Of a stretch of DNA of 64,000 nt, positions 22,812-30,724 are shown one piece after another. The DNA comes from Pseudomonadota bacterium. GTDB lineage: Bacteria; Pseudomonadota; Alphaproteobacteria; Micavibrionales; UBA2020. Within the stretch, counting starts at the first letter, position 1. Every line of letters begins with the position of its first letter. Under the pieces are notes generated by a model. The model did not search any database. It was not told the DNA's origin and worked only from the letters and a program-made list of their open reading frames with translations. Location: assembly GCA_023444705.1 (NCBI GenBank), contig JAEXMB010000095.1:762-64761 (forward strand), in the 5' to 3' direction. The position numbers and the translations under genes were made by a program.

Positions 22812-23984
22812 TTACAGCCTGCCCATGCCCATCATGCGGCGCGGCGGCTTGGTTGAGACGGATGTGTCCGCTGGCGCGGCACTGCCGCCGATAATAACAC
22901 GATCACCTGCTTCAAGGCCGTCGATGACGGCGGCTTGCGTGCGGTCGCTGACGCCGACGATGATCGTGCGTGCCTGCGCTCCCTTGGGTGTGGCGACGCT
23001 GACTTCATAGGCCTTGCCGTCTTTGGTGTCGGCGTCGGGCTTGCGCTTGGTCAGGGCGCTGACAGGGATGATGGCGGTATCCTGGGCCTTGGCGGCGATG
23101 AAAAATATTTGCGCGGTCATGCCTGTCATCAGCTGGCCGTCGGAGTTGTCGACATCGACCAGAACGTTGTACAGCACCACGTCATTGATGGTTTCGGGGC
23201 TGGGCAGTATCTGGCGCACGGTGCCTTCCCATTTGCGCTCGCCCGCGCCCAGCGTGGTGAAGTAAACCGGCATGCCGACGCTCAGCTTGGGCACGTCGGC
23301 TTCGGCGACCTGCGCCTTGGCGGTCATCACGTCAAGCTTGGCGACCTGCACGATGACGGGTGCGGTCTGGTTGGCGTTGATGGTCTGCCCCTGCTTGACC
23401 GATTGTGACACAACGGTGCCGGTCATGGGGGCGTAGATTTTGGTATAGCTGAGATTGGTGCGGCTGCCGTCCAGGCTTGATTGCGCTTCCTCGATCTGCG
23501 CATCAAGCGATTTCAGCTTGGCGCTAGCGACGTCATGATTGGTCTGCGCGTCTTCCAGTACCTCGATACTGATAGCTTTGGTCTTCATCAGTTTCTGGTT
23601 GCGTGCCAGTTTTTGCTCCGCCTGTACCAGCAGGGCCTGTTGTTCGTCGCGCTGCGCCTGCAATGTGCGCAGGCGCGCTTCGTCGCCTTTGACCTGCGCT
23701 TCGTAGACATCGGGGTCGATCTCGGCGATCAGGTCGCCTTCCTTGACGGTATCGCCGACTTCGACCGCAAGGTTGACCACCAGACCCGAGACCTGCGCGC
23801 CGACGTCGACATAGTCCTTGGCCTCGAGTTTGCCCTGCGCGGTGACCACGCTTTCGATGTTGCCGCGGGTGATCTCGACACTGGTTTGTGCCGTGGCGGG
23901 AGGGGCGTTGCGGGTGCGCCACAGCCATAGGGCGCCACCGACAATGGCCGTCAAGATAATGAAAATAATCAGTTTTTTGCGCAT
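22812..23984 (-). CDS. macA: MacA-type HlyD-family periplasmic adaptor
   Basis: Membrane anchor MRKKLIIFIILTAIVGG, coiled-coil hairpin, lipoyl and beta-barrel segments. It lies directly upstream of macB. Confidence 0.85.
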   Translation of the reverse strand: MRKKLIIFIILTAIVGGALWLWRTRNAPPATAQTSVEITRGNIESVVTAQGKLEAKDYVDVGAQVSGLVVNLAVEVGDTVKEGDLIAEIDPDVYEAQVKGDEARLRTLQAQRDEQQALLVQAEQKLARNQKLMKTKAISIEVLEDAQTNHDVASAKLKSLDAQIEEAQSSLDGSRTNLSYTKIYAPMTGTVVSQSVKQGQTINANQTAPVIVQVAKLDVMTAKAQVAEADVPKLSVGMPVYFTTLGAGERKWEGTVRQILPSPETINDVVLYNVLVDVDNSDGQLMTGMTAQIFFIAAKAQDTAIIPVSALTKRKPDADTKDGKAYEVSVATPKGAQARTIIVGVSDRTQAAVIDGLEAGDRVIIGGSAAPADTSVSTKPPRRMMGMGRL

Positions 23985-24091
23985 TGGCGGCTCCGTCAAC
24001 GGTCTGCGGTCTTGCACCTATTATACGTGCAAACGCACGGCAAACCTGCGCCAAAGCTAATTTGAAATAAAATTAGTCAAAAACCGTCTTG

Positions 24092-24114
24092 TATATACTC
24101 ATATAGAGTATATA
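24092..24114. promoter_or_regulatory. Perfect 9-5-9 inverted repeat TATATACTC-ATATA-GAGTATATA, a candidate operator upstream of nadV
   Basis: Read directly. It lies about 80 nt upstream of the nadV ATG, in an AT-rich spacer of an otherwise GC-rich region. Confidence 0.5.
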
Positions 24115-24191
24115 TATGTTCATACTGATTATAAATAAGGCGCGATTCGTACCGCAAGCGGATGCACCAGCCACCCCAAGGAGAGACGCAC

Positions 24192-25775
24192 ATGACCATT
24201 CTTAATGCCCTGCGCAGCAATATCATCGACACCGACAGCTACAAGGTGTCGCACTGGCGCCAGTACCCGCAAGGAACGGAATATGTGTCGAGCTATATCG
24301 AGGCGCGCTCCAGCCGCTACGCCAAGGCGCTGGGCGAGGGGTATGACTTCGCGCAGTTTTTCGGCCTGCAGGCATTCCTGAGCGAATACCTCGCCAAACC
24401 CGTCACGCAGGACGATATCGACCTGGCCGAGCTGGTGTTTGAAATGCATGGCGAGCCGTTTAACAAAGAAGGCTGGCAGTACATCGTCGATGTGCATGGC
24501 GGCAAGCTGCCCATCGAAGTGCGCGCCTTGCCCGAAGGCACCGTCGCCAAGACCAGCAACGCGATGGTCGAAATCATCAACACCGATCCCAAATGCTTCT
24601 GGCTGACCAGCTATGTCGAGCCTGCACTGTTGCGTGCGGTCTGGTATCCGACCACGGTATCGACCAAATCGCGCGTGCTGAAGGAAGTCTGCCGCGCGTA
24701 TCTCAACGATACGGCAGACAGTGCCGACGGGCTTGATTTCATGCTGCACGATTTCGGCGCGCGCGGCGTCAGCTCGCTTGAATCCTCTGTTCTTGGCGGC
24801 ATGGCGCATCTGGTCAACTTCAAGGGCACCGATACGGTGATGGGCATGATGGGTGCGCTTGGTTACTACAAGCCGGAATTTGAAACCGAGCTGGCGGCCA
24901 ATGGCGGCGATGCGAAAAAAGCGATGATTGCCGTACTGCGTGACATGAAGGCGAAAGGCGAGGCGCTGCCCGCATTTTCGGTCGAGGCGTCGGAGCATTC
25001 CACCATGACCATTAAAGGGCGCGAAGGCGAGGCCGAACAGGTCAAGGCGTTGATCGACCGCGCCAAAACGGGGTGCATCGTATCCATCGTGTCTGACAGC
25101 TACGATTATTTTCATGCGGTTGAAAAGCTCTATGGCGATCGTTTCCGTGCCGACATCATCGAAGCGGGTAAAAACGGTGGTCGCGTGGTCATCCGTCCGG
25201 ACAGTGGCGATCCGATCGATGTTGTGGTGCGTACGCTGAAAATCCTCGAAGCCAAATTCGGCGCCACGGTGAATAGCAAAGGCTATAAAGTTCTGCCGCC
25301 CTATGTCCGTGTGCTGCAGGGCGATGGCATTGACTTTGACAGTATGTACAAGTTGCTGGATGAGGTGAAGGCGGCGGGCTACAGCGTTGAAAACGTGGTG
25401 TGCGGCATGGGCGGCGGTTTGCTGCAAAAACCGACGCGCGACGACCTTAACTTTGCACAGAAAGCCTCGGCGGCCTTCATCAATGGCCAGTGGTACGATG
25501 TGTACAAGGATCCCGCGACGGCGGATCCGAACTTCGTCAAGCGTTCCAAACGCGGCCGTCTGTCGACTGTATTTGACGGCGTGGCCTTCAAGACCATCCG
25601 CACCGCAGACCTTAAGGCGCATGAAAAAGACGCGATGGTGGCAGTGTTTCGCAACGGCGAGGTACTGGTCAAAACCGATCTTGACGCGGTACGCGCACGT
25701 TCGGAGCAGACGGCCAGTATCTTCGTCAACCCTACTGCCGTCGCCGTCAAACGTGCAGCAGGCCTGAAAAAGTAA
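24192..25775 (+). CDS. nadV: Nicotinamide phosphoribosyltransferase (Nampt/NadV family)
   Basis: IIDTDSYKVSHWRQYP..., HDFGARGVSS, VIRPDSGDP and LQGDGI are Nampt family hallmarks. AAGGAGA lies 7 nt before the ATG at 24192. Confidence 0.9.
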   Translation: MTILNALRSNIIDTDSYKVSHWRQYPQGTEYVSSYIEARSSRYAKALGEGYDFAQFFGLQAFLSEYLAKPVTQDDIDLAELVFEMHGEPFNKEGWQYIVDVHGGKLPIEVRALPEGTVAKTSNAMVEIINTDPKCFWLTSYVEPALLRAVWYPTTVSTKSRVLKEVCRAYLNDTADSADGLDFMLHDFGARGVSSLESSVLGGMAHLVNFKGTDTVMGMMGALGYYKPEFETELAANGGDAKKAMIAVLRDMKAKGEALPAFSVEASEHSTMTIKGREGEAEQVKALIDRAKTGCIVSIVSDSYDYFHAVEKLYGDRFRADIIEAGKNGGRVVIRPDSGDPIDVVVRTLKILEAKFGATVNSKGYKVLPPYVRVLQGDGIDFDSMYKLLDEVKAAGYSVENVVCGMGGGLLQKPTRDDLNFAQKASAAFINGQWYDVYKDPATADPNFVKRSKRGRLSTVFDGVAFKTIRTADLKAHEKDAMVAVFRNGEVLVKTDLDAVRARSEQTASIFVNPTAVAVKRAAGLKK

Positions 25776-25801
25776 GCTGATCTTGGCTAACCGTCTTCTG
25801 C

Positions 25802-25827
25802 CCCCGCCATGTTCGCGCATGGCGGGG
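25802..25827 (+). promoter_or_regulatory. Intercistronic perfect 10-bp stem-loop (CCCCGCCATG-ttcgcg-CATGGCGGGG) between nadV and the downstream fusion gene
   Basis: Read directly. There is no downstream T-run, so it is more likely an RNA stability, processing or attenuation element than an intrinsic terminator. Confidence 0.4.
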
Positions 25828-25863
25828 AACGGGAGAGCTTTACCCGCATAAAGGTATCACGAT

Positions 25864-27732
25864 ATGACACGTGCATTTGATGGAAAACTCGACACGAAAC
25901 TGGCCGCGGAAATGAAAGCGGCGGGTTTTGAATACGGCCTGTCGATCGGGCGCCGCGCGCCGTTGCACAAGATGCACATCGACTGCATTCTAGAAATCGC
26001 ACGCGCGGGGCTGAAGCCCGTCATTGTCATCGGCTCGGTCAATACGGCGGGTGACCCGCTCTATGATCCCTTGCGCAACCCACTGACGGTCGAAGCACAG
26101 ATGCAACAGCTGCGCGACGCCTTGCCGCCCGAACTCTATGCGCAATGCACCATCCTGACCTTGCCCGACCAGCAGGACGACGCTGTGTGGATGCAGAGCC
26201 TGAAAAAGCTGCTCGATGACAACGGCATGGCGGGCAAAGCGGTGATGCACTTCCGCGCCAAGGCGGCTGATGCTGCCACCACCTCTGCGGCGCGATGCAA
26301 GCCGCTGGGGGCATACAAGGAAAGCCTGATCGGGGCGGGCATCGGTGTGTGGCAGTCATATAACGAAAACCCGGCGGACGACAACATCAATGCGTCCGAT
26401 ATCCGTACCTTTAACCTCGCCGTACTCACCGACGCGCAATATGCGCTGGCGCCGCATCTGGCGCGTATGGCGGAACAGGCGCGGGTCATGCGGCTGACCA
26501 ATCCCGACGGCAAGGCGCTTGACAAGGCCGGCGTGCCGTTGACGATGCTCGATTTCAGCCTGGCGCGGCTTTACCGCGAAACCGGCACGCCTACGGGCGA
26601 GATCCTCAAGCGTGCGAAGCTGAACGGCACGGTCAGTCTTGAAAGCCTCACGGCGGCGGCGAAAGAAACGCTTGAACGTCTGAAGCGCGCGCCCATGATC
26701 ATCAGCCCGCAATACGTGCAAGATTATGCGGGGCAGGGGTTTGAGCCTATTGCGGCAAGCGTGGGCGCATTTCAAAGCGGCGAAACTTTCAGCGAACTAT
26801 TTTACGGAGATAATGACAACTTCGAAAAAAATACAGACCGCATCAAAGGCGCGCATGTCTATGTCGTGCAATCGACAGCCGCACCCGTGGGCGACAATAT
26901 CCAGCACCTGCTGCACATGATCCATACGCTGAAATACTATGGCGCAGAAAAAGTTACAGCTGTGCTGCCGTTTTCTGCCTATGCGCGCCAAGACCGCGCC
27001 TTTGGCCAGCGTTTTACTTCGGTGGGCGCTGACATGCTGCCCAGGCAGCTCAAGGCGGCGGGGGCTGACGCGGTGATGGGTGTAACCCTGCATTCCAAGG
27101 CCGCGATGGCATTCTACAGCGCTGCCTTTGGCAAGAATTTTAGCGCCATTTCCACGGCGCCCTTGCTGGCGCAACATCTCAAAGCGCTTGGCCTGTCTGC
27201 GGACAATGCGGTGGTCGGCGCCCCTGATGGCGGGGAGAAACTGCACGACGAAGGTATCGCGCGCGCACGCGATGTGGGCCAGTCGCTCAGCGCCGCGTTC
27301 AATGACCGTGCAATGTTTAAAATCTCCAAGGTTCATACCTCGGCCAGCGAAACAAAAGTCACAGCCTTCAGCGGCGACGTGACGGGCAAGACGGCAGTGG
27401 TGGTCGATGACATGGTGGATGGCGGCTCGACCCTGATAAATGCGGCGCGCGTGCTGAAGGCCAATGGCGCGAAAGAGGTGATCTGCTGCGTCACGCACGG
27501 TGTGCTGACTGCGGCGGGCGGCACGCCGGCACTGGTCAAATTGCTGGGCGCGCAGGACGACAGGGGGGTGCCGCTGGTTGCGCGCTTTGTGGTGACGGAC
27601 AGTGTGCCGGATGTTGCGGCCAAGGTCGCGGCACTGGCGCCGGAATTGCGCGCGCGTGTTGATGTTGTGCCGCTGGCGCCCTATCTGGCGCAGCAGATGC
27701 AGGCGCAGCACAAACAGCGCTTCGTGCGCTAG
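25864..27732 (+). CDS. Fusion protein: NadM-type NMN adenylyltransferase-like domain plus ribose-phosphate pyrophosphokinase (Prs) domain
   Basis: N-terminal GRRAPLHKMHIDCILEI compares with archaeal NadM GRFQPFHKGHLEVIKKI. VIVIGS...NPLT and INASDIR (ISxTxIR-like) also fit. The C-terminal part is Prs-like: VVQSTAAPVGDNIQHLLHMIHTLK, AVLPFSAYARQDR, VVVDDMVDGGSTL. Confidence 0.8.
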   Translation: MTRAFDGKLDTKLAAEMKAAGFEYGLSIGRRAPLHKMHIDCILEIARAGLKPVIVIGSVNTAGDPLYDPLRNPLTVEAQMQQLRDALPPELYAQCTILTLPDQQDDAVWMQSLKKLLDDNGMAGKAVMHFRAKAADAATTSAARCKPLGAYKESLIGAGIGVWQSYNENPADDNINASDIRTFNLAVLTDAQYALAPHLARMAEQARVMRLTNPDGKALDKAGVPLTMLDFSLARLYRETGTPTGEILKRAKLNGTVSLESLTAAAKETLERLKRAPMIISPQYVQDYAGQGFEPIAASVGAFQSGETFSELFYGDNDNFEKNTDRIKGAHVYVVQSTAAPVGDNIQHLLHMIHTLKYYGAEKVTAVLPFSAYARQDRAFGQRFTSVGADMLPRQLKAAGADAVMGVTLHSKAAMAFYSAAFGKNFSAISTAPLLAQHLKALGLSADNAVVGAPDGGEKLHDEGIARARDVGQSLSAAFNDRAMFKISKVHTSASETKVTAFSGDVTGKTAVVVDDMVDGGSTLINAARVLKANGAKEVICCVTHGVLTAAGGTPALVKLLGAQDDRGVPLVARFVVTDSVPDVAAKVAALAPELRARVDVVPLAPYLAQQMQAQHKQRFVR

Positions 27733-27736
27733 GGGA

Positions 27737-30724
27737 TCAGTAATCCCACTCCCAGAACAGGCCCGCACCCGCGCGCGCGTCCTGCCCGACCTCGCTTTCG
27801 ACCTTGATATTGGGCGTCAGCTCGATCTGCAATTTGGCATCGCCGCCTTTGTTGCCGCCGCCGACCTGCAGGTAGACGTTGTCCGACAGGTATTTTCCCG
27901 CACCGACCGATGTGCCGCCGTCTTCGGTGCTGTCGACGGACAGATCGTCAAGGCCAAAGCCGCTGCGCAGTTTGCCAAGCGGATCAAGGCCCTGACCGCC
28001 GCCTGAAAAACGTTGCAATGTCTGCGCCATCTGGATCGCCTGCGTGGGCGAGATATTGGCGCGGTCCTTGCCAAACAGGATATGCGACAGCACGTCTTCC
28101 TGCGGCAGGGCGGGGTTGCTTGTGAACGTGACTTTGGGTTTTGACGCGCTGCCGCCCAGAACGACCTGAGCGGTAATGTCGTCGACCTTGGTTTCCGCAA
28201 CGATGTCGAGATAAGGCGAGGGCGGAACGGCACCGATGAAGTCAAGACGCGCGCGCGCCAGCGTGAACTTGCGCCCGAACTCCTCATAGCGGCCGCGCAG
28301 GGATTGCAGGCTACCGTTGGCAACGGGGTCCTGTGCGGTGCCGCTGATGGCGATCTTGCCGCCAAATTCTGCATCAAGCCCCCAGCCGCGCACAAAAATC
28401 TGGCGCGGCATGTTGGCGGTCACGTCAAGCCTGAGCGCATCTAGGCCGGGCAGGGAAGAGTCGCGGCTTTGTCTTTTTTCGACGACATTCAGCTGCGGCA
28501 CAGACGAGCTGAACGTGGCAGGCAGGGTGATGTCGAGCCTGTCGCTGCCAATGGTGCCTGCCAGCAAATAGTTATTACGCTGCCCTGACAGGCGCAGGTC
28601 GGCATCAAGCACGCCATCAATTACCGGCATGGTCGATACCACCGCCGCACTGCGCGTGAACGGGTCGATCGCGGACATTTTCAGCGTCGCATCGACCGGC
28701 CAGCTGGCGGGCGCAAGCGTCAGGCGGCCGCTGGCTGCAAGCTTGCCCTTTTTCGCATCGCGCGCGCTCAGGGTGTCAATGGCGATGGCGTCTTTATCAA
28801 AACGTGCCTTGAGCGTGATGTCCTGCAAGGCAATCCCCGTGCCGCTGTCGCGGAGTTTGCCGCCGGAAATGTTCAGCGTACCCGCGCTGACGGGCGCAAG
28901 GGGGTTGCCGCTGGCGCTGGCGTTGAGGTCGGTATCGCCGCTCAGGGTCAGGCCCACGGGCAGAAAACCCGATAGCGCCGAAAGGTTGCCGCGCAACGCC
29001 GCCGTGGCATCCAGCCCTGTATCGGGCAAGGCGAAAGCGAAGGGATTGAGCGACAGCGTTATCGGCATGCGCGCGCTGATGTTGCCGCTGCGCAGGGCGC
29101 GGCTGTTGATCTTGGCGTCAAGGCGGGCCATGCCCTCGGCAATGCCCGCGGTGATATCGATGGACAGGGCGGGCGTGCCTTTGGGCAGGTTTGTGGGCGT
29201 AACGTGCGTGCTGGCCGCGATGACGGGGGCCGCCATGCTGCCCTTGGCGGTGATTGTGGTTTTCTCAAGCCGCAGGGGGGGTAGGCCACCTGCAAACAGC
29301 GGCCCTTGCAGACGGTCGGGGCGCAAGGCCGCGCTTGCCAGCGCAAGGTCCAGCGTCTGCATATCAATGCGGCCCGCTAGTGTCAGCTTGCCCGCTTTGC
29401 CAGCTGTGAGTGTGCTGTCGAGGTCTTCGACGCGCCAGTTTTCGCCGCTGTCGTCAAACAGCAGATTGGCACTGGCGGCGAGGGTGCTGTTGCTGAGCGC
29501 GTCTTTGGCGGACAGCGTGATGCTGCGGCTGCCATCGGGCGCGCCTGCAATCGGTGTTGTCGACAGCTTGACATCGCGCAGGTCGGCCAGATCGTGGCGC
29601 AGACGTCCGATGGCGAGGTTCAGCGTGGGGCCGTCAAACGACAGCGACGCATCCAGCGTTTCCTTGACCGGCACGGCATCGACTTGCGGTGCGAATTTCG
29701 CCAGCTCGCCAAAGTTGATTGCGGCGTCAAGCGCACCAGCCCACGTACCGTCGTCTTTCTGGCCAATATTGCCCTTGGCTTTTACACCGGGGCCGTCGGC
29801 GACAATGTCGCGGACGTCCAGATGCGCGCCGCGCTGGCGCAGGTTTGCGCTCAGGGAAACCGCCGCGTTGTCAGGCAGTGGCGCATGCAGCGAAAACGCC
29901 AGCGGCTCTTCGTCCTGCGCGGTGCGCGGCAGGGCCAGTTGCGCGCTCACGCTTTGGCTGAAGGTCGGCGTCGCCACGCTCAGGTCGTCGATGACGATGG
30001 CGGGGTGTTCGCCCTGCAAAACCAGCCGTGCGCGCAGCTCGCTGTCAAGACGTGAGTCGTCTTCGAGCAATCCGGTGGTGGAAAAAGACGCCTGCGTATA
30101 CAAACCGTCTTCGCTTTTTTCCGCCAGCAGGCGCAGGCTGGGCGACAGGACGGTTTGCGCCGTGCCGTCGCTGCCGATCATGGCCAGCTGGTTGATATGC
30201 AGGCCGTCAACAACGATGCGGCGCAGGGGCAGGCTGTCGAGCGTCTCTGCCAGCATTGCCGCATCGGGCAAGAGCGGGGCGGGTGCGCTGTCGTCGGGCG
30301 CGGCAGGCGCTGGCGCGGATGTTTCATGCACCAGCAGGCTGCGCACGCGCAGGTCAAGGCGCAACTCGCCATGCAGCAATCCGGCCAGTGCAGGGGTGAG
30401 CAGGATATTCTCGGCAACGATATAAGGCGCGCCGTTTTCCTGCACGCTCAGGCGTGACAGCGCAAGCTGGCTGGCGCCAAGGGCGCGCAGGCGGCCGACT
30501 TCGATCGTATAGCCGCTGTCTTGCGTCACTGCGCTCAGTTGTGCCGACAGCCATTTTTGCCCGGGCGCGGTCGAGGTCAGCACAAAGGCGCCGAGCGTCA
30601 GCACAATAAACGACACCATCAGCAATAGCATGACCACACTGGCCAGCGACAGCAGGCAGGCGAACAGCCAGCGCAAGGGGCGCGGCAGGGCGGGGATGTG
30701 CGCGGGCGTAAAGGGCAGTTTCAT
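27737..30724 (-). CDS. tamB: Translocation and assembly module subunit TamB (AsmA-like, DUF490)
   Basis: N-terminal anchor, long beta-rich repeats, and a DUF490 C-terminus (...YLQVGGGNKGGDAKLQIELTPNIKVESEVG...GLFWEWDY). Its start overlaps the tamA stop. Confidence 0.85.
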   Translation of the reverse strand: MKLPFTPAHIPALPRPLRWLFACLLSLASVVMLLLMVSFIVLTLGAFVLTSTAPGQKWLSAQLSAVTQDSGYTIEVGRLRALGASQLALSRLSVQENGAPYIVAENILLTPALAGLLHGELRLDLRVRSLLVHETSAPAPAAPDDSAPAPLLPDAAMLAETLDSLPLRRIVVDGLHINQLAMIGSDGTAQTVLSPSLRLLAEKSEDGLYTQASFSTTGLLEDDSRLDSELRARLVLQGEHPAIVIDDLSVATPTFSQSVSAQLALPRTAQDEEPLAFSLHAPLPDNAAVSLSANLRQRGAHLDVRDIVADGPGVKAKGNIGQKDDGTWAGALDAAINFGELAKFAPQVDAVPVKETLDASLSFDGPTLNLAIGRLRHDLADLRDVKLSTTPIAGAPDGSRSITLSAKDALSNSTLAASANLLFDDSGENWRVEDLDSTLTAGKAGKLTLAGRIDMQTLDLALASAALRPDRLQGPLFAGGLPPLRLEKTTITAKGSMAAPVIAASTHVTPTNLPKGTPALSIDITAGIAEGMARLDAKINSRALRSGNISARMPITLSLNPFAFALPDTGLDATAALRGNLSALSGFLPVGLTLSGDTDLNASASGNPLAPVSAGTLNISGGKLRDSGTGIALQDITLKARFDKDAIAIDTLSARDAKKGKLAASGRLTLAPASWPVDATLKMSAIDPFTRSAAVVSTMPVIDGVLDADLRLSGQRNNYLLAGTIGSDRLDITLPATFSSSVPQLNVVEKRQSRDSSLPGLDALRLDVTANMPRQIFVRGWGLDAEFGGKIAISGTAQDPVANGSLQSLRGRYEEFGRKFTLARARLDFIGAVPPSPYLDIVAETKVDDITAQVVLGGSASKPKVTFTSNPALPQEDVLSHILFGKDRANISPTQAIQMAQTLQRFSGGGQGLDPLGKLRSGFGLDDLSVDSTEDGGTSVGAGKYLSDNVYLQVGGGNKGGDAKLQIELTPNIKVESEVGQDARAGAGLFWEWDY

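Follow-up and report, generated by a model that had tools for sequence, protein, structure and literature searches.

Bacterial operons that join nadM to nadV, and dedicated prs-nadV operons that carry a second prs paralogue, have been established since 2008 (Rodionov et al. 2008, PMC2330246). The former are exemplified by Synechocystis and the latter by Shewanella, Acinetobacter and Chromobacterium (PMC2330246). Related gene sets occur in phages. The phage system NARP2 consists of KVP40 NadV and NatV, which joins nicotinamide mononucleotide (NMN) adenylyltransferase (NMNAT) to Nudix (Osterman et al., bioRxiv 10.1101/2024.02.11.579819), and NARP1 pairs the Prs-family protein Adps with the Nampt-family protein Namat. 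Here, we analyse a locus in a 64,000-nt stretch of alphaproteobacterial DNA (Micavibrionales, UBA2020; contig JAEXMB010000095.1, positions 762 to 64,761), referred to below as the window. In this locus nadV is followed, after a gap of 88 nt (25776-25863), by a single open reading frame (ORF) of 622 aa in which a NadM-like module is fused to a Prs-like module (Table 1). The two genes probably form an operon for non-deamidating salvage of nicotinamide to nicotinamide adenine dinucleotide (NAD), with its own supply of phosphoribosyl pyrophosphate (PRPP).

According to the proposed scheme, the Prs-like half would form PRPP from ribose-5-phosphate and ATP, NadV, being of Nampt type, would combine PRPP and nicotinamide into NMN, and the NadM-like half would convert NMN and ATP to NAD. 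The three activities proposed here (PRPP synthetase, Nampt and NadM-type NMNAT) are also those of bacterial salvage II, which follows the same logic of a PRPP supply committed to nicotinamide salvage, and is likewise organised as an operon with a palindromic operator upstream. The locus in the window differs from salvage II in that NMNAT and Prs are one polypeptide. Bacterial NadM has a Nudix (ADP-ribose pyrophosphatase) domain, whereas the module described here has a helical extension of about 90 aa, and its NMNAT signature reads GRRAPxHxMH in contrast to the known GRFQPxHxGH. The Prs of the window also falls in a separate clade. NARP2 takes the same Nampt and NMNAT route from nicotinamide and PRPP to NAD, and its NadV has the same GGGLLQ-type helix. 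In contrast to NARP2, the window locus is chromosomal and housekeeping-like rather than phage-borne, encodes its own PRPP synthetase and is without a Nudix domain. Since nadM-nadV and prs-nadV operons (PMC2330246) and NARP2 (bioRxiv 10.1101/2024.02.11.579819) precede it, the proposed chemistry is already known, and the novelty lies in the arrangement and not in the pathway. Four elements appear to be undescribed: a long NadM-like subfamily that is Gly-less and has a helical extension, the covalent fusion of this module to Prs (in relatives, it is NadE or an inositol monophosphatase (IMPase)-family domain that is fused), the separate Prs clade, and a lineage-specific operator. Full-text literature searches found no description of a NadM-Prs fusion. 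A preliminary description, made from the letters of the window, had proposed a self-contained nicotinamide-to-NAD module, and the comparative evidence from gene contexts, profile search and Foldseek favours that reading.

Table 1. Positions of the nadV-fusion locus and its parts in the window.
Feature	Position	Strand	Basis or remark
Candidate operator site 1, perfect palindrome TATACTC-ATATA-GAGTATA (TATACTCATATAGAGTATA)	24094-24112		About 80 nt upstream of the nadV start
Candidate operator site 2, degenerate copy (TATGTTCATACTGATTATA), 3 mismatches	24115-24133		21 nt downstream of site 1
nadV, Nampt-type nicotinamide phosphoribosyltransferase, 527 aa	24192-25775	+	Pfam, NCBIfam PRK09198, PDB matches, motif, Shine-Dalgarno; alternative ATG 24162 gives 537 aa
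Fusion ORF, NadM-like module and Prs-like module, 622 aa	25864-27732	+	ORF coordinates, 33 full-length homologues, AlphaFold full-length model
NadM-like nucleotidyltransferase (Rossmann-like) core, aa ~20-185	25921-26418	+	Profile search against PDB, Foldseek, invariant residues
Helical extension, aa ~186-277	26419-26694	+	Conserved NPD...PLTxLDxxLxRLxxExG; continues without a break into Prs strand 1
Prs-like (ribose-phosphate diphosphokinase) module, aa 278-622	26695-27729	+	TIGR01251, 4s2u, Foldseek, tree, motif alignment

The fusion of the NadM-like and Prs-like modules is real and conserved. A search of 5.8 billion proteins returned 33 full-length homologues of 620-666 aa (43-90% identity) that hold both halves in one ORF, as well as four standalone Prs-like proteins, and the alignment of the homologues is collinear across the junction of the modules. 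Five contigs carry exactly this protein sequence, among them one from an ENA and one from a Logan assembly. In the AlphaFold model of the full-length protein (pLDDT 88.4, pTM 0.80), the N-terminal module ends in a helix (aa 259-274) that leads immediately into the first Prs strand (aa 278-280), and this junction is modelled with confidence (pLDDT ~90). The sole split version belongs to an 81%-identical relative with identical synteny (L009:6001-7857 and L010:3234-5090, two assemblies that may come from one sample), which is called as two genes of 333 aa and 279 aa. This split is the one point in support of an artefact, in which an error of sequencing or assembly would have merged two genes. 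The split is a single in-frame TAA in place of the CAA of Gln336, a nearly invariant residue (VVQST) inside the Prs half and away from the junction, whereas the preliminary description had named a stop or frameshift near aa 270-290 as the mark of such a merger. As the homologues also come from many samples as single ORFs, we give an artefact next to no credence. The TAA itself could reflect a pseudogenised Prs half, read-through or a sequencing variant.

The N-terminal module appears to be a divergent NadM-type domain, and profile search, the AlphaFold model and Foldseek all place it nearest to the NadM-type NMN adenylyltransferases. With a profile of 19 N-terminal domains, the top 11 matches in PDB were all NadM-type NMNATs, and the only sequence relatives there belong to the NadM family (1ej2, 2qjo, 2qjt and 1f9a; best E 2e-4). 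The AlphaFold model of the module (pLDDT 90.2, pTM 0.86) consists of a Rossmann-like core (aa ~20-185) and a helical part (aa ~190-275). Foldseek ranked the NadM-Nudix proteins 2qjo (Synechocystis, 8.7e-8) and 2qjt (Francisella) first, followed by the archaeal NMNATs 4yp7, 1hyb and 1f9a and then by PPAT, ATP sulfurylase and pantothenate synthetase. These results agree with the NadM-like motifs read from the letters in the preliminary description, and the domain does match the nucleotidyltransferase superfamily, as that description required. The fold thus matches archaeal-type NadM (1f9a, 1ej2/1hyb) and NadM-Nudix (2qjo, 2qjt), with which the module shares the Arg of GRxxP, both His residues, IGS, NP(L/F)T, D...W and SxxxR. 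It differs from these structures in its low identity of 15-19%, in the Met that replaces the Gly of HxGH and in the additional helical domain.

The family to which the module belongs became visible only by exhaustive profile search; a word-index search with the N-terminal domain returned three proteins. Among 1.84 billion representative proteins, the profile search gave 48 matches below 1e-30 and 72 below 1e-10, and it reached short NadM-like proteins of 165-190 aa that carry GRFQPxHxGH (E 1e-12 to 1e-6). In these representatives the long NadM family, defined by GRRxPxHxxH and the helical extension, comprises about 50-70 clusters at 50% identity and is covered by neither a Pfam nor an NCBIfam model. 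In the fusion protein, GRRAPLHKMH occupies aa 29-38 (25948-25977), IGS aa 56-58, NPLT aa 72-75 and INASDIR aa 175-181 (26386-26406). G29, R30, P33, H35 and H38 do not vary among the 19 members of the family, nor among 12 distant relatives of long and short form. The invariant set between long and short forms further includes G57, S58, N72, P73, D102, W109 and R181, and the IGS, NP(L/F)T, D...W and C-terminal SxxxR signatures of the short GRFQPxHxGH proteins all find their counterparts in the module. To judge from these invariant residues, the module retains the predicted signatures for binding ATP and the pyridine nucleotide.

The Gly of HxGH is Met37 in the window protein, and the position is M or L throughout the fusion family. 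M, V, I, A, L and G all occur there in the wider long subfamily, in which both His residues and the Arg never change. Because of this variability around fixed His residues, the substitution appears to be a trait of the subfamily and not a sign of decay. ATP sulfurylases, too, have HxxH without the Gly. The doubt about activity that the preliminary description raised over this residue is therefore weakened, though the Met is indeed there, and the family offers a natural experiment on the drift of the (H/T)xGH nucleotidyltransferase signature. It is the gene context that suggests a reaction for the module, namely that NMN (or nicotinic acid mononucleotide, NaMN) and ATP would yield NAD (or nicotinic acid adenine dinucleotide) and pyrophosphate.

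The extension of about 90 aa that follows the core is formed by helices between aa 190 and 274 (pLDDT ~90), with N213, P214, L219, D230, R235, E239 and G241 invariant, and is not present in short NadM proteins. A profile search of aa 183-280 against PDB found nothing significant (best E 0.16). A likeness to a helix-hairpin-helix, noted by eye, was dropped, as no tool supported it.

The C-terminal half is predicted to adopt a complete two-lobe PRPP-synthetase fold. Foldseek aligned it with class I PRPP synthetases of Thermus, E. coli, Mycobacterium, Legionella, Bacillus subtilis and human over ~345 columns, with target-normalised TM-scores of 0.82-0.87, in agreement with the complete Prs-like module seen in the preliminary description. 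Pfam identified only Prs domains in the fusion protein (aa ~323-551). The half passes TIGR01251 (165.8 bits, cut-off 113) and matches E. coli Prs 4s2u with E 2.9e-32. AYARQDR lies at aa 372-378 (26977-26997), the catalytic-loop Lys489 at 27328-27330, and VVVDDMVDGGSTL at aa 512-524, with DDMVDGGST at 27406-27432. ARQDR, the active-site His410, Lys489 and D515, D516, D519 and T523 of DDxxDxxxT are invariant. By BLAST, the half scored 135 bits (34% identity) to an E. coli Prs sequence of which residues 43-256 agree with the 4s2u alignment, versus 50 bits (26%) to the Adps-type protein of Felixounavirus. In a small neighbour-joining tree, the Prs halves of the fusions and the standalone Prs proteins of NAD clusters form one clade in 200 of 200 bootstraps; Adps-type proteins of phage operons form a second (200/200), and canonical Prs a third group. 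Within this set the half is 28-31% identical to canonical Prs and 14-21% to the Adps-type proteins. Its clade is marked by an insert of about 11 aa after FxSGE, together with the departures from canonical Prs given below (K-V-H, DGGST, the 6-aa insert and the missing tail). It is thus a distinct, NAD-linked Prs paralogue, for which PRPP synthesis is the most economical assignment.

Another view of the Prs-like half is that it is the sole housekeeping PRPP synthetase of the organism, fused to an NMNAT, and not a dedicated NAD paralogue. No second prs was found within the 64-kb window, and the lineage, represented by Micavibrio-like metagenome-assembled genomes (MAGs), may have a reduced metabolism. 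The preliminary description had treated it as damaging to its proposal if the half clustered with, and was, the sole housekeeping Prs. The half does not cluster with canonical Prs; its clade is found only in NAD clusters and stands apart. It also scores far under all equivalog cut-offs and fails the stricter models (160 versus 297 bits for PRK01259, for example), and lies behind an operator that is common to other NAD genes. A sole Prs could hardly bear a premature stop such as that of the close relative, and there is a documented precedent for a second prs paralogue in linkage with nadV (PMC2330246). A housekeeping role is therefore quite unlikely.

The contexts of the module in relatives are informative for the function of both halves. 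Mapping of 26 loci by tblastn revealed two recurring layouts. In layout 1, nadV is followed by the module-Prs fusion and, in some loci, by NadE. In layout 2, a Prs-like gene on the opposite strand is followed by PncB-like and PncA-like genes and the module with NadE. Throughout the map, the N-terminal module accompanies Nampt or a PncB-like protein, together with the Prs-like protein, NadE or both. The constant trio is a PRPP-dependent pyridine phosphoribosyltransferase, the NadM-like module and this Prs-like paralogue, a pattern to be expected were the Prs-like protein the source of PRPP and the module the enzyme that adenylylates the mononucleotide. The parts also occur separately. In L005, the gene for a standalone homologue of the module (296 aa, 45% identity, E 2e-73) has nadV on one side and a Prs-like gene, itself standalone, on the other. 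A NadE-family protein of 1182 aa in L006 carries the module as its N-terminal part, and its gene adjoins PncA-like and PncB-like genes, with the same Prs-like paralogue on the other strand, and in L011 a standalone module lies between a PncA-like gene and NadE. The fusions to Prs, NadE and an IMPase-family domain link an unannotated domain with NAD(P) metabolism.

Layout 2 occurs in relatives of the same lineage (L006, L011, L017, L018 and L021-L026) and not in the window. The encoded proteins are long: PncB-like ~660 aa, PncA-like ~400 aa and an unusually long NadE of ~890 aa. This layout could serve a Preiss-Handler route or a Francisella-like route from NaMN through NMN to NAD. In the Francisella-type route, a NadE-family NMN synthetase converts NaMN to NMN, and NadM acts next. 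The layout 2 clusters also pair NadM-type and NadE-family enzymes, although these clusters lie in relatives rather than in the window, and by analogy, should the NadM-like module have a preference for NMN, they would work in the Francisella manner. Further architectures of the long module include proteins of 565-571 aa (P0047, P0050 and P0052) with a C-terminal domain of the inositol-monophosphatase family (PF00459) and, in the more distant relatives P0079 and P0080 (586-613 aa), S-adenosylmethionine (SAM)-methyltransferase domains at the N-terminus. In the locus with the unfused arrangement (L005:2393-4591), the region some 1 kb upstream of nadV encodes a tyrosine integrase and an AlpA-like protein; in this form the cluster may adjoin an integrated element.

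Several observations weigh against the salvage reading. For the N-terminal module, Pfam gave no hit on aa 1-300, CTP_transf_like (PF01467) included. NCBIfam gave weak NadM matches over aa 17-126 (E 2.7e-6), and the NadM models scored 15-27 bits against cut-offs of 127-409, so that every curated threshold was failed (26.8 versus 409 bits for the top match, 14.8 versus 181.2 for TIGR01527). The replacement of the HxGH Gly by Met belongs here as well. In the Prs half, the catalytic loop has K-V-H where canonical Prs has K-R-R, the ribose-5-phosphate loop reads DGGST versus DTGGT, six residues are inserted after PDGG, and the canonical C-terminal SxSxxF-like tail is missing. Because these departures fall at functionally important places, the substrate and the regulation of the half could differ from those of canonical Prs, and the K-V-x and D-G-G features recur in the Adps-type protein of Felixounavirus. 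The stop in the Prs half of a close relative is a further point of this kind. Finally, the fused enzymes would catalyse non-consecutive steps, so channelling cannot explain their fusion.

From part of these observations one could argue that the NadM-like module is catalytically dead and acts as a sensor of NAD, NMN or ATP that regulates the attached Prs, with NMN adenylylated by a NadD or NadR encoded elsewhere. The Met in HxGH, the scores below curated thresholds and the non-consecutive steps would all fit, and the loss of the canonical C-terminal allosteric tail makes a replacement regulatory element conceivable. The pattern of conservation speaks for a working enzyme: across sequences that share only 22-45% identity, both His residues, the Arg of GRxxP, the NP of NPLT, the Trp and the SxxxR Arg never vary, which is typical of a catalytic site, and the Gly position varies freely in the subfamily, Gly included. 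Standalone, NadE-fused and IMPase-family-fused forms do not fit a regulator specific for Prs. In addition, within ~6 kb on either side of the PncB-like, PncA-like and NadE clusters, no mapped gene would supply another adenylyltransferase. We regard a dead module as unlikely. The salvage reading keeps an active module, and the fusion would likely ensure 1:1 production of the first and last enzymes of the route. As archaeal NadM forms hexamers and class I Prs does too, a single assembly may carry both activities.

NadV appears to be of Nampt type, as the preliminary description had it. Pfam identified NAMPT_N (PF18127) and NAPRTase (PF04095), and the protein scored 561.9 bits with PRK09198 (cut-off 405). 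In PDB it matched Xanthomonas Nampt 7yqo with E 1.3e-123 and human Nampt with ~1e-116 to 1e-117. Its three weakest PDB matches (~1e-60 to 1e-64) are deposited as 'nicotinamide phosphoribosyltransferase'; we suspect that they are phage Namat. The curated models cannot settle the matter, for the Adps-type protein of Felixounavirus passes TIGR01251 (124.8 bits) and its Namat-type partner passes PRK09198, and the thresholds of these models cannot tell Prs from Adps or Nampt from Namat. A structural motif separates the latter two. The selectivity clamp of Namat is a helix with F392 and Y396 in SpbetaL1 (G390-S391-F392...Y396.T398-R399-D400, or GSFxxxYxTRD; PMC12774641). The corresponding region of the window NadV is GMGGGLLQKPTRD, a GGGLLQK helix with G and K where Namat is aromatic. 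All 11 cluster-linked NadV sequences are without the aromatic GS[F/Y]xxx[Y/F] clamp; together with KVP40-like Nampt, they read GMGGGL[L/E]Q[K/Q]. Proteins from the prs-nampt operons of Felixounavirus VpaE1, Staphylococcus phage K and Bacillus phage Bubs read GVGS[Y/F]x[Y]x[Y/F]xTRD, and in a second small neighbour-joining tree the Namat-type proteins split off in 100 of 100 bootstraps. The phage references in both trees are called Adps-type or Namat-type from operon structure and clamp motif rather than from assays on those proteins. Relative to solved Nampt structures, NadV also has an insert of about 30 aa (ANGGDAKKAMIAVLRDMKAKGEALP...; aa ~237-267, window 24800-24990), which cuts its PDB matches into two stretches and is shared by the cluster-linked homologue of L015.

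These results bear on a further proposal of the preliminary description, that the pair recycles ADP-ribose in the manner of NARP1, with the Prs half acting as an Adps that pyrophosphorylates ADP-ribose, NadV as a Namat that uses ADP-ribose pyrophosphate (ADPR-PP) and nicotinamide, and the NadM-like domain as a mere binder of an adenylylated ligand. Like NARP1, the locus pairs a Prs-family with a Nampt-family protein, resembling the phage prs-nampt operons, and both systems pass the same generic family models. Moreover, SKVHT and DDMVDGGST of the Prs half resemble SKVRN and DDICDGGRT of the Felixounavirus Adps-type protein. The likeness does not extend to the clamp, to either tree or to the order of the genes, which is opposite to that of the phage operons. 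The same Prs-like paralogue is present in clusters with PncB-like proteins and NadE, which need PRPP and a mononucleotide adenylyltransferase. The constant trio is hard to square with the ADPR-PP route because that two-step route needs no adenylyltransferase, and a conserved module with every catalytic residue kept would be superfluous in it. The chromosomal, syntenic position of the locus, which is not on a mobile element, and the lack of viral relatives among the IMG/VR contigs add to this, and a NARP1-like role is very improbable. For searches aimed at NARP1, a prs-nampt neighbourhood and passes of generic models are insufficient; in the present case the two systems are cleanly told apart by the clamp motif of Namat.

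The salvage locus is chromosomal and vertically inherited, and not the cargo of a phage or island, because of its housekeeping neighbours, its conserved synteny, its hosts and the absence of relatives in viral contigs. A metagenomic scaffold of 218 kb (ENA ERZ28595206) includes the window, and the neighbours of the locus are the housekeeping genes macAB, tamAB, yhdP, glyA, tyrS, lepA, pgi, sua5 and anmK. The order macB-macA, nadV-fusion, tamB-tamA is shared with relatives whose fusion proteins are 61% and 81% identical. The named genomes that encode the fusion family are all MAGs of Alphaproteobacteria, three labelled Micavibrio and one Rickettsiales, and a search of IMG/VR viral contigs found no relative of the family. 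Within the 64-kb window, reference proteins of NadE and of PncA-like and PncB-like types had no match; nadD was not searched for. The public annotation of the fusion proteins is 'ribose-phosphate diphosphokinase' only, which makes the adenylyltransferase step invisible in these genomes. As a result, metabolic reconstructions of Micavibrio-like and related uncultured Alphaproteobacteria would wrongly call NAD salvage incomplete.

A tandem TATACTC-N5-GAGTATA operator, common to the NAD clusters of the lineage, probably mediates repression of the operon. When the pattern was relaxed to at most three mismatches, only sites 1 and 2 matched in the 64 kb, versus 0.2 matches expected by chance. Site 1 is found at the same position upstream of nadV in seven loci (L003, L005, L009, L012, L013, L016 and L020), and its palindrome also lies in the divergent intergenic region between the Prs-like and PncB-like genes of L017, L018 and L026. 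The tandem second site is also present in L003, L005 and L009/L010. An NrtR operator was considered and rejected: the palindrome core is CT-N7-AG, in contrast to the GT-N7-AC core of NrtR, and no NrtR gene was looked for. The candidate operator is a lead toward the NAD regulator of the lineage. Further tandem copies of the palindrome occur away from NAD genes. Two perfect copies lie directly upstream of a Zn-alcohol-dehydrogenase-like ORF (L016:6245-6291), and three lie past the 3' end of an isoamylase-like gene (L015:416-478), which suggests a wider regulon for the cognate regulator.

A bolder picture can be drawn from these elements. In it, the long NadM, with a functional Gly-less HxxH, would have displaced NadD and would serve Micavibrio-like Alphaproteobacteria as their chief or sole pyridine-mononucleotide adenylyltransferase. 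Its fusion to a dedicated, differently regulated Prs would form a hexameric NAD-salvage machine on which Nampt docks, and one repressor at TATACTC-N5-GAGTATA would control the entire NAD regulon of the lineage. We consider this picture speculative and, taken as a whole, doubtful.

The gene boundaries agree with the preliminary description, which had nadV followed after 88 nt by the 622-aa ORF, and all the motifs that it quoted for this protein are present and in place. Its start of the locus, 24060, covers the two genes but adds only the AT-rich upstream region. The reading frame of nadV opens at an upstream ATG (24162-25775, 537 aa). ATG 24192 is the more likely start because the Shine-Dalgarno sequence AAGGAGAG lies 5 nt 5' of it and because the products called for the gene, both on the source scaffold and in relatives, are of 525-527 aa. 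Rfam at gathering thresholds identified three tRNAs only in the whole window, with no riboswitch or RNA element upstream of nadV, and promoter and terminator scans of 23900-27900 did not rise above shuffled expectation. Between nadV and the fusion ORF, a GC-rich hairpin with a 10-bp stem and a 6-nt loop (CCCCGCCATG-TTCGCG-CATGGCGGGG, 25802-25827) is present without a T tract after it. The hairpin is not kept in relatives, in which the two genes are separated by 11 nt (L003) or overlap by 4 nt (L012); it may act as an mRNA stabiliser or a partial attenuator. The bin 24001-26000 has a G+C content of 55.7%, compared with 60-64% across most of the window, and the AT-rich promoter region explains part of this difference.

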